Shown here piece by piece: positions 6,208 through 54,211 of a stretch of DNA of 64,000 bases. Under the pieces are notes generated by a model that saw only the letters and a list, made by a program, of their open reading frames with translations, did not search any database and was not told where the DNA came from. A program made the translations under genes and the position numbers. Numbering within the stretch: position 1 is the stretch's first letter; each line of letters opens with the position of its first letter. Origin of the DNA: Malacoraja senta (taxonomy: Eukaryota); the NCBI GenBank assembly GCA_038087875.1, contig CM075989.1, positions 9,178,001 to 9,242,000 of the forward strand, in the 5' to 3' direction.

Positions 6208-6736
6208 GTAAGGTAAATGTTCCAAAGCAATTTGTAAGGCAAAATGTTGAACAAACTAAACAAGTTTAACTGCCCAGGTGTTAAAGGCTTGCGGGGGAGA
6301 GGGGGGGGGAGGTAGAGGGGGGTGGGGAGGGGGGGGGAGTGACTGTACTAACAAGCATGCAGCACTTCACAGCTTTGAGTGGTTCCATGTGTCTAAACCC
6401 AAAACCCCTCAAGTTTATTGCCATTGTCATCCCAATAGGGAAACTGATGCACAACATCCTGATGCCCTTTGGTTGCTGCTGTCAAAGGCATTTGCACCCC
6501 GTTAAAATTTCTCACAACCAACAGGGACATTTAAATCAATTCAAAGAGATTGGAATAATTAGAAGTATGTGTACATTTCATCCCAGAGAGATCTGGGAGA
6601 ATTTTTGAAACTGGTTGATGTGCCGTTGGTTAGTGGAGTTCGAATAAACATCAGTCCTGACCTAACTGAATATTGTTTTTAAAGAGTGGAGATGATTCCA
6701 CGTTAACTCTGAAAAACAGCCCCTCAGGTTAGTGAC

Positions 6737-7170
6737 TGTAGATGAGATATGCATGTGCCTTTAATATAGTTACCTCATCACTACTAACCACTCCCCATAT
6801 CACAAGTATAATTAGGATGGCGAGATGCGAAGGAGACAGGCAGCTGCAGGCCGTCATGGAGCTGTAGTAGCAAGCGGCACAAGCCCGAACTGAGAGGCGT
6901 CGCAGGTGAGGATAATGGGACGCTGCAGGTCCCACGCTGGAGGCGTGGGTTCGAATCCCACTTATGACACCATGTAAATAAGCGTTAACGACACATCGTT
7001 ACTTACTACCTTTATTCATACTGCAGCATTATAGAAGGCACTAGCTGTACGTGGTCTATCACAGGAACTAGAGAGCGATATGTGGGTGGGGAGGTTGTAA
7101 TTATACTTGTGATATGGGGAGTAGTTAGTAGTATTAACTATATTAAAGGCACATGCATATCTCATCTACA
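6737..7170 (-). mobile_element. Rearranged Ty3/Gypsy element: LTR (7170-6973), extended tRNA-Leu PBS (6972-6937), RNase H fragment (~6935-6815), inverted partial LTR (6737-6814)
   Basis: TGT...ACA termini, 5-bp TSD GTGAC, AATAAA in the LTR, TGGTGTCATAAGTGGGATTCGAACC after the LTR's CA, and DLQRPIILTCDASQFGL / DGLQLPVSFASR coding remnants. Confidence 0.88.
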
Positions 7171-7400
7171 GTGACCCAGCGGTAAAGCTGCTGCCTTACA
7201 GCGCCTGAGACCCAGGTTTGATCCTGTCTATGGGTGCTGTCTGTACGGAGTTTGTAAGTTCTCCCTGTGACCGCGAGTGTTTTTTTCCGGGTGCTCCGGT
7301 TTCCTCCCACACTCCAAAGACGTACAGGTTTGTAGGTTAATTGACTTCGATAAAATAGTGAATTGTGTTGGTCGGCGTGGACTCGGAGGGGCTGTTTCGG
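7171..7400 (+). mobile_element. HE1-type V-SINE
   Basis: tRNA-like head (cagcggtaaagctgctgccttacagcgcc..ggtttgatcc) plus V-domain (gggtgctccggtttcctcccaca). Confidence 0.85.
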
Positions 7401-7491: not shown

Positions 7492-7889
7492 CCAAAGATC
7501 CTATAGCAAGCAAGATGGTCCACTCGACGAAAAAGGCGGAGTACGGTCATGGGCAGATTCATGGGTAATTTAAGGCCCCATTTCCGTAACCGGCTTCCGT
7601 CTCCGCACCAAAGATCCCATAGGATACCAGTGCGGAGACGGAAGCCGGTTACGGAAACATCCTCGTAAAAATAAAAGTTATTTGGTAAAAATCTTCTCCT
7701 CATTTTCAGAATTTAAATTTATTAACACAAACTGTTCCCCCGCAACGTTGATTACACTGCGAGTCGGGTCAGGTCCGGTTACGGAAATGGATGAAAAAAA
7801 AGGCCCACGTTCTGTTCTGTTGCGTACTACACGTCAGCCCATTGCATTTAGCAGGAGTGGTCTATCTTGCTCCGCTACAGGATCTTTGG
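7492..7889. mobile_element. Non-autonomous TIR element (MITE-like) with an internal perfect hairpin
   Basis: Ends CCAAAGATCCTATAG..CAAGAT / ATCTTG..CTACAGGATCTTTGG; 28-bp perfect inverted repeat at 7581-7608 / 7630-7657. Confidence 0.75.
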
Positions 7890-53471: not shown

Positions 53472-53690
53472 TGTAGATGGTTTATGCATGCAACCAATCA
53501 CATAGCTACCTCCCCACTACTAATCCCGCCTTAAGTATCATTTATAATAACGCCTGCTTCTCCTTCTGCGCAGTACAGTAGCAGACTGGAGTCCGTGACT
53601 ACTCATGTGATGTTTAACTCTGTATACTTATTAAAGACTATTATAATGCTACACGTGTGTAATGACTATTTACATGGTGTCAGAAGTGGG
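53472..53690 (+). mobile_element. Ty3/Gypsy LTR (53472-53674) with tRNA-Leu PBS (53675-53690) and no internal region
   Basis: TGTAGATG...ATTAAA...TATTTACA followed by TGGTGTCAGAAGTGGG; ACTG direct repeat at 53468-53471 / 53691-53694. Confidence 0.85.
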
Positions 53691-54211
53691 ACTGTAATTG
53701 TACCGTTCACATCCAATTAGACCTATAATGCATTAGTAATGTCAAATACTTGAATACTCTGCAAACAGGGAAATGTACCTTGAGGGCTGGCATCTGGCAG
53801 GATGCCAAAAACATATGGACCATCCTTGGGTTTTTACATTATCATTATGTGCTTGAAGGCACAACCTAATTGGTCAGCATTTTGACAATGCATTGTTACA
53901 CTGATTTCATGTCAGTTTTTCGTATAGCTCTCTCTGCAACTTTCCATGTTGGATCACCGGTGCACTCTCATTCTTTACCTGACTGGTTAATTCACGGTGT
54001 GGGTCCATTGTAACTGACCTTTACAGTGGTGAATAGGAGTTGCCTTTCTTGGGAGTGCTCAAGGTCGTTTGAAACTCCTGAATGTAATCTATTACATTGC
54101 TGATAAGTGAATTTTGTCAAGAAGTTTAAAAAAATACCACTCTCCTTCAGATTACCAATTTTATTAAATTCAGCTGCCACCCTGTGCACGGGTGAAAGTA
54201 CAACATGCAAT

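Follow-up and report, generated by a model that had tools for sequence, protein, structure and literature searches.

The window, a 64,000-nucleotide stretch of Malacoraja senta DNA (contig CM075989.1, positions 9,178,001 to 9,242,000), contains a 434-bp unit in which an LTR, a complement of tRNA-Leu, a fragment of RNase H and an inverted 78-bp copy of U3 follow one another between TGT..ACA ends, with GTGAC on both sides. A sequence-only reading of this DNA had named each of these parts, and all of them are present. The complete LTR (6973..7170, minus strand) is 198 bp long, against a family length of 204 bp, and is 94-95% identical to the LTRs of L171, a 4542-bp near-full-length copy of the parental Gypsy family with direct LTRs and broken gag-pol frames. 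Beside it lies the complement of tRNA-Leu (6938..6972, minus strand), recognized by comparison with host tRNA-Leu genes L091 and L093-L099. Positions 6937-6972 match the 3' end of the host genome's tRNA-Leu genes plus CCA with one mismatch, which bears out the earlier assignment to tRNA-Leu with two refinements. The proposed Leu-CAG primer is not singled out, as these 36 nt are common to the Leu-CAA and Leu-CAG genes, and the proposed 36-nt copy is probably better read as 35 nt because its 36th base also starts a 7-nt fold-back. This fold-back (6931..6937, minus strand) is the reverse complement of 6943-6949, the tRNA copy's own nt 24-30; it starts with the base that is also the 36th to match the tRNA and ends with the first base of the RNase H fragment. 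Fillers resembling it were seen in 1 of 96 other read-through copies of the kind described below.

The RNase H fragment of the parental pol (6820..6931, minus strand, 112 nt) is in sense orientation to the LTR, is frameshifted and is 94% identical to nt 2527-2637 of the L171 element. About 120 nt of frameshifted Gypsy RNase H had been predicted, and the parental frame indeed gives Pfam RVT_1 and RT_RNaseH. The inverted U3 arm (6737..6814, plus strand) supplies the second TGT..ACA end; it corresponds to nt 1-78 of the family LTR, with 100% identity to the L171 5' LTR, close to the roughly 75 nt estimated at first. Within the window the inverted copies pair at 6732-6772/7135-7175 (98%) and 6780-6814/7098-7132 (97%). 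Comparison of the junction bases between RNase H and the inverted U3 (6815..6819, minus strand) with approximately 30 parental RNase H copies revealed no microhomology; three of these bases may continue RNase H after the loss of one base, and the other two are without assignment. ARAGORN predicted no whole tRNA in the window, and no Rfam RNA was found at the locus, where the best matches lay under the gathering scores.

The target-site duplication consists of GTGAC at 6732..6736 and 7171..7175 (plus strand), in keeping with a parental family that makes 5-bp duplications. The target was a common SINE, which we take to be HE1: its head forms the right flank of the unit, and the GTGRC word at that head is also the right GTGAC. 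In other copies of the SINE the word is single (among the 40 matches printed of 55), so the duplication reported earlier is real, and these copies can stand in, at the level of sequence comparison, for an orthologous empty site. When sequencing runs were searched for words of the empty allele, the share reached 0.47 in one run and was small in 23 others; such word shares are no evidence for that allele. A net deletion of 5 nt sits in the full LTR and not in the inverted arm. It is the full LTR that has lost bases, because the inverted arm resembles 28 of the 30 family LTR starts examined, whereas the full LTR resembles none at an equal threshold.

Integration through two U3 ends, as proposed from the sequence, is supported by further loci. 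Six independent U3-U3 integrants with exact 5-bp duplications were identified, including the one in the window; among 51 resolved read-through copies, 4 are of this two-U3 kind. The others are L062 (1287 bp, duplication ACCAC), L086 (1402 bp, GACAC), L103 (492 bp, ATGTT), L133 (1666 bp, TCCAT) and L020 (L020:1501-2545, 1045 bp, GATAG). Across the six, arm length varies between 19 and 277 bp and the contents differ, and an integrase gene was seen in none. These sequences make it likely that Gypsy integrase can naturally use a pair of U3 ends. That the inverted arm instead formed after integration, by inversion, by repair of the locus or from two adjacent insertions, would agree with an RNase H/U3 junction that lacks microhomology and holds two unassigned bases. 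We nevertheless regard this as very unlikely, given that both outer ends are exact U3 starts within one 5-bp duplication, that the duplicated word occurs once in other copies of the SINE, that five other loci are built likewise, and that the arm retains bases absent from the full LTR and hence was not copied from the present LTR.

L020 belongs to the same family as the window unit, carries no primer sequence after its LTR and has an internal head-to-head U3 junction, features that fit a second-round plus strand made after removal of the tRNA. L109 has an inverted arm but no duplication. Partial U3 pieces stop at LTR nt 78-88 in four cases (window 6814, L154, L158 and L109), just before a C-rich tract (G-rich template) that is possibly a pause site of plus-strand synthesis.

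A parental Gypsy family carrying this LTR and RNase H had been postulated and was found, with L171 as an example. The domains of L171 (Pfam RVT_1, RT_RNaseH, Integrase_H2C2 and rve) place reverse transcriptase, RNase H and integrase in order between direct TG..CA LTRs, together with a primer binding site and a polypurine tract (PPT). A 5-bp duplication with at most one mismatch flanks 38 of 41 two-LTR copies, within the 4-6 bp of Gypsy elements, and the identity of LTR pairs is 82-100%, mostly above 91%. The closest named proteins come from a skate (77%) and from bony fishes (61-67%), followed by marine invertebrates, among the best 120 of 2983 matches; no named Steamer or SURL reference occurs among those 120. 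Placement of the family in the C-clade (Mag) is a lead only.

Of 10 long copies fetched, 8 have a primer site that agrees with tRNA-Leu over only 8-9 nt, after which come a shared leader and the start of gag; the remaining two have longer tRNA matches and jump into gag. Genome-wide, the 9-nt site occurs at 342 LTR ends of the TTTACA type, and 22 of the first 30 of these, which represent several subfamilies, have the gag start motif. A second leader box about 13 nt past the 9-nt site is complementary to the variable arm/T stem of the tRNA. Among the same 30 ends this box is exact in 17, with a near variant recognized by eye in 8 more, and for one subfamily its complementarity to nt 28-36 of the tRNA copy is exact. 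Its duplex energy is weak singly, with z <= -2 in 4 of 21 distinct leaders and negative values in 21 of 21. A constitutive 36-nt primer site, which had been raised as a possible feature of the parent, is ruled out by the 9-nt site of leader-intact copies. Separately, a small lineage (L062, L078, L128 and L192) has inherited a 35-nt primer site and copied it again.

Read-through beyond the A58 stop on mature tRNA-Leu had been suggested for the unit and is supported, the leader-intact parental copies having only a 9-nt site; the sequence-only reading had passed over the occurrence of such read-through in hundreds of copies, and the location of the stop near 35 nt at a second, probably modified position. 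A pattern search of the genome placed an exact 18-nt tRNA site at 1281 LTR ends, and 436 LTR ends carry at least 26 exact nt of tRNA-Leu with any base allowed opposite A58, so that about a third ran past the 18-nt site. The first 100 of the 436 matches, all on one contig (C1), were taken as a detailed sample; four were dropped because they share a junction with another copy, leaving 96 distinct junctions. The tRNA-Leu stretch is 26-60 nt long and is joined to differing internal points. Landings that could be placed on L171 (61 of 100) are spread all along gag-pol, 51 in sense and 10 in antisense. Both ends could be resolved by the duplication in 51 of the 100, with a direct LTR end in 47 and an inverted U3 in 4; the other 49 are without resolution, half of them for want of fetched sequence. 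Read-through is therefore a feature of hundreds of copies that arose by independent events and not a rare accident. The template was mature tRNA, since the LTR-joined copies carry CCA and those of Leu-CAA that cross the intron site are without the 30-31-nt intron of the genes.

Most of the copies end in the vicinity of the variable-loop C or of G37. Among the 96, ends are rare at nt 26-33 (hazard 0-0.06), and the hazard is 0.19 and 0.13 at nt 35-36, into which ends at nt 37-38 were counted by the counting rule. At nt 39-43 the hazard is 0.12-0.19 and about one third of the ends lie there, so stops are not confined to modified sites. At nt 47-50, beside G37, it is 0.20-0.62, and only 3 of 96 copies run past nt 50. 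Five further copies (L203, L212, L217, L227 and L247) differ at A58 by a deletion of 1-2 nt or by a double change and for that reason are absent from the count of 436. Of the 18-nt-stop copies (L186-L215), 21 were examined, some of them with shared junctions; all 14 that could be mapped run on in antisense, in contrast to the mostly sense read-through copies (51 of 61), although several other 18-nt copies are sense. L003, L007, L008, L061 and L088 land on the leader box, keeping the rest of the leader and gaining a 34-36-nt primer site; such landings account for 2 of the 100 sampled read-through copies.

The sequence-only reading had likewise passed over the errors in these copies, which are located at known modified positions. 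Opposite A58, the first 100 copies have T in 62, A in 24, C in 13 and G in 1. The base is non-matching in 37 of the 96 (in tRNA sense T 23, G 13 and C 1; Fisher p 1e-22); the window copy has the correct base. At the other 27 positions of the pattern, 116 single mismatches were counted genome-wide (552 minus 436), or about 4 per position, compared with about 165 at A58, provided that the share on C1 holds. According to one study, m1A followed by A gives a low C signal (PMC4787781), and the low C share here fits that report because the context is the same. The variable-loop C, nt 36 of the tRNA copy and just 5' of UGGAG, is wrong in 33 of the 43 copies that run to at least nt 40 (Fisher p 6e-34), against a background of 16 of 581 (2.8%) at neighbouring non-CpG positions. 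A whole-genome search with the Leu-CAA variable-arm pattern returned 52 matches, all of them inspected and five rows reclassified by eye: the 3 genes all have C, and the 49 pieces derived from reverse transcription have C in 11, T in 32, G in 4 and A in 2. The 19 matches of the Leu-CAG set comprise 7 genes, all with C, and 12 LTR-joined copies (9 distinct), none with C. The C is present in all 11 host Leu genes seen. Further in, G37 is wrong in 7 of the 8 distinct copies that clearly pass it, and G26 in both copies that reach it (L162 and L239). Co-occurrence of errors at A58 and the variable loop is a trend only (18/2/15/8, p = 0.08).

These error sites coincide with the known positions of m1A58, m3C-e2 and m1G37, and the errors are absent from the host genes, which keep the unchanged base. 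Two reports describe m3C-e2 in zebrafish Leu-CAG (PMC11417395) and in almost all mouse tRNAs with C at e2 (PMC12642329). Judged by position and error pattern, from which the chemistry is inferred, the errors likely record chemical modification of the primer tRNA, and the read-through copies would then likely preserve, as fossils, the methylation of the primer tRNA in the germ line of the host. CpG decay was rejected as the source, as none of the error sites is a CpG; at nt 28-29 of the tRNA copy, which do form a CpG, the changes amount to about 10% and 4%.

The long tRNA copies could alternatively stem from unassembled tRNA-Leu gene variants, or from an old master element with a long primer site, with the errors inherited or acquired by later mutation. 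The catalogue of tRNA genes is indeed incomplete: it contains only 4 Leu-CAA and 7 Leu-CAG genes, and the assembly has no exact gene for the Leu-CAA variant that was copied most often, L098/L099 differing from it at nt 57. Inheritance of a 35-nt site in one small lineage (L062, L078 and L128) points the same way. Hidden gene variants are unlikely, however, because three different wrong bases per site occur on three isodecoder backgrounds; the errors also extend over many LTR subfamilies and 96 junctions, the sites are not CpG, and 11 of 11 genes have C at the variable-loop site. We consider an origin from gene variants or a master element highly improbable.

One LTR-joined copy, L100:1442-1528, is a full-length, intron-less tRNA-Leu(CAA) with CCA that ARAGORN calls a gene; some annotated tRNA genes may therefore be such copies. 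It has the unchanged base at 58, at the variable-loop C, at 37 and at 26, and is likely a complete read-through of an unmodified primer.

The unit itself is a dead single copy, a rearranged piece of a Gypsy LTR retrotransposon. A 27-nt pattern over its RNase H/inverted-U3 junction, searched with up to 3 mismatches allowed, has one match in 1.94 Gb. This pattern search is a count over the whole assembly, and in the DNA searches 40 candidates were scored each. Its LTR and RNase H region are both abundant (2952 and 2042 candidates, 40 of each scored), and among these 40 and 40, as with the junction pattern, the two are joined in this arrangement in the window alone. The sequence-only reading had suggested a new non-autonomous Ginger-like family, and for the window unit that idea is lost: it is not a new TIR family because it is single-copy. 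Membership in such a family, one that arose from LTR ends and transposes by cut-and-paste, would draw on the 78-bp TGT..ACA inverted ends, which follow the TGTNR pattern within the TIR size range of Ginger1, and on the existence of six two-U3 integrants, yet it is extremely unlikely in view of a junction unique in the genome (copy number was assessed for the window unit only), six integrants unlike in LTR subfamily, arm length and content, a 5-bp duplication as in the parent versus 4 bp in Ginger1 or metazoan Ginger2, and no integrase gene in any of the six.

Assignment of the unit to known classes was also considered. The 78-bp arms start with TGTAG and in this resemble Ginger1 and Ginger2, which have TGTNR termini and inverted repeats of 40-270 bp (PMC2836005). 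Unlike them, the unit has the 5-bp GTGAC in place of a 4-bp duplication (CCGG/CCGT in Ginger1, an AT-rich target in Ginger2), only a fragment of RNase H with no integrase-like transposase, and a single copy without a multicopy shared body (PMC2836005). It is not a TRIM, as its second end is an inverted U3, there is no PPT and it is single-copy, versus the direct LTRs, primer binding site, PPT and amplification of that class.

We conclude that the unit is very probably a single-copy rearranged Gypsy piece that originated from dead-end plus-strand strong-stop DNA and entered the genome by way of two U3 ends. In the manner of Ty1/Ty3, the initial plus strand would copy the tRNA primer and normally be discarded, and the 9-nt site would be inherited from the RNA because this tRNA-copying strand is lost. 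The reverse transcriptase of the family would often pass m1A58 with errors and then stall at the variable-loop m3C or at m1G37. A tRNA tail unable to pair with the minus strand would prime at short matches elsewhere, giving rise to deletions and inversions; short matches of 2-6 nt were present at the junction in 6 of 9 copies with 18-nt sites. In the window copy, synthesis would have halted at tRNA nt 35, with the strand then turning back on itself over 7 nt; a switch to the minus strand would have added about 112 nt of RNase H before the product was joined to a second plus strand just 78 nt long. Template switching, as proposed at the outset, is supported, but three switches (fold-back, RNase H and second U3) are needed rather than two. 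The two plus strands would have been extended on each other, and integrase would have taken both ends and made the 5-bp duplication. Both ends of the unit would be U3 because of the join to the second plus strand, and several plus strands per particle would explain how two U3 ends came together. A dead-end plus-strand scheme like that of Ty would also account for the persistence of a 9-nt site in a family in which hundreds of copies carry more of the tRNA. We infer the order of events, the recycling of the PPT and the chemical identity of the marks from the anatomy of the sequences and from the counts. A wider joint reading is that the working stop has moved from m1A58 to the m3C of the tRNA-Leu variable loop, with the conserved leader box that ends exactly there as landing pad, that two-U3 linear DNA is a one-step route from LTR to Ginger-like TIR elements, and that some integrants moved again as units; we rate this combination as unlikely.

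Insertions of tRNA at deletions in spleen necrosis virus vectors were reportedly described in 1991. In the open-access literature, with most subscription journals and supplements outside, we found no description of endogenous copies that record tRNA modifications or of natural two-U3 Gypsy integrants. According to PMC5371799, Ty1 and Ty3 have a short bipartite primer site and a PPT that primes several times; the tRNA is copied into the first plus strand, which builds up as a dead end, and the primer sequence is not inherited. The family described here would resemble them in a short primer site with a candidate second box (individually weak by duplex energy), in a dead-end first plus strand, in a primer sequence that is probably not inherited, and in the presence of several plus strands in one particle. 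The Ty copy, however, stops after 12 nt and its integration is not reported in that text (PMC5371799), whereas the tails here are 18 to 60 nt long, were integrated hundreds of times and carry errors of the modification type. HIV-1 (PMC8599865, PMC13191261) is comparable in its major stop at m1A58, in having deeper minor stops, and in genomic sequence beside the primer site that can accept the over-extended strand. Plus-strand over-extension of HIV-1 is documented there in vitro and in mutant cells, and long extensions are said to prevent integration. Unlike HIV-1, with its 18-nt primer site and minor stops at 54, 55 and 37 of tRNA-Lys3, the parent here has a 9-nt site, the next stop lies in the Leu variable loop and the products were fixed in the germ line.

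Steamer and C-clade elements (PMC8905726) likewise have a tRNA-Leu primer site starting TGGTGTCAG right after the LTR, short LTRs (153-219 bp, 204 bp here), a length of about 4.5 kb, and gag-pol with reverse transcriptase, RNase H and integrase in this order. Their primer site, TGGTGTCAGAAG, is 12 nt long; the parent here uses the same tRNA and the same first 9 nt, and its leader-intact copies match only those 9. It differs from Steamer proper in an LTR that starts TGTAGAT and not TGTAACA (PMC8905726). The Ginger paper leaves the path from LTR to TIR elements open and suggests two separate LTRs in opposite orientation (PMC2836005), unlike the inverted ends here, both of which would come from one integration event. 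The TRIMs Helenus and Ajax, according to PMC10886601, are small non-coding LTR derivatives, and many read-through copies are similarly TRIM-sized with direct LTRs. Helenus, as described there, is an amplified family with a sense tRNA-like promoter inside the LTR, whereas here the tRNA piece lies outside the LTR as an antisense copy of the primer, and almost all copies are unique. Errors and stops at m1A58, m3C-e2, m1G37 and m2,2G26 are what misincorporation-based tRNA sequencing detects (PMC4787781, PMC11417395, PMC12642329); the record here differs in that it would have been written in vivo by the enzyme of a retrotransposon and stored in genomic DNA. For mouse ERVs, a review that considered errors of this sort in 18-nt primer sites reports that the variants do not correspond to known tRNA modifications (PMC7472051).

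The unit clearly exemplifies a by-product that Gypsy reverse transcription has left throughout the genome. If this account is true, a genome assembly alone would report the methylated bases of a germ-line tRNA copy by copy, LTR divergence could date each methylation record, and a fossil epitranscriptome would become accessible for species without RNA data. It would also quantify in vivo how far m1A58 acts as the plus-strand stop, a role long under debate, and acceptance of two U3 ends by Gypsy integrase would bear on the LTR-to-TIR origin of elements such as Ginger1.

Two other features were observed in the window. At 53472-53693 lies an LTR from a sister subfamily, whose 18-nt primer site contains one mismatch. 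Nested inverted repeats at 7578-7790, with 28-bp arms at 7581-7657 and 16-bp arms at 7578/7790, are possibly a small unrelated TIR element.
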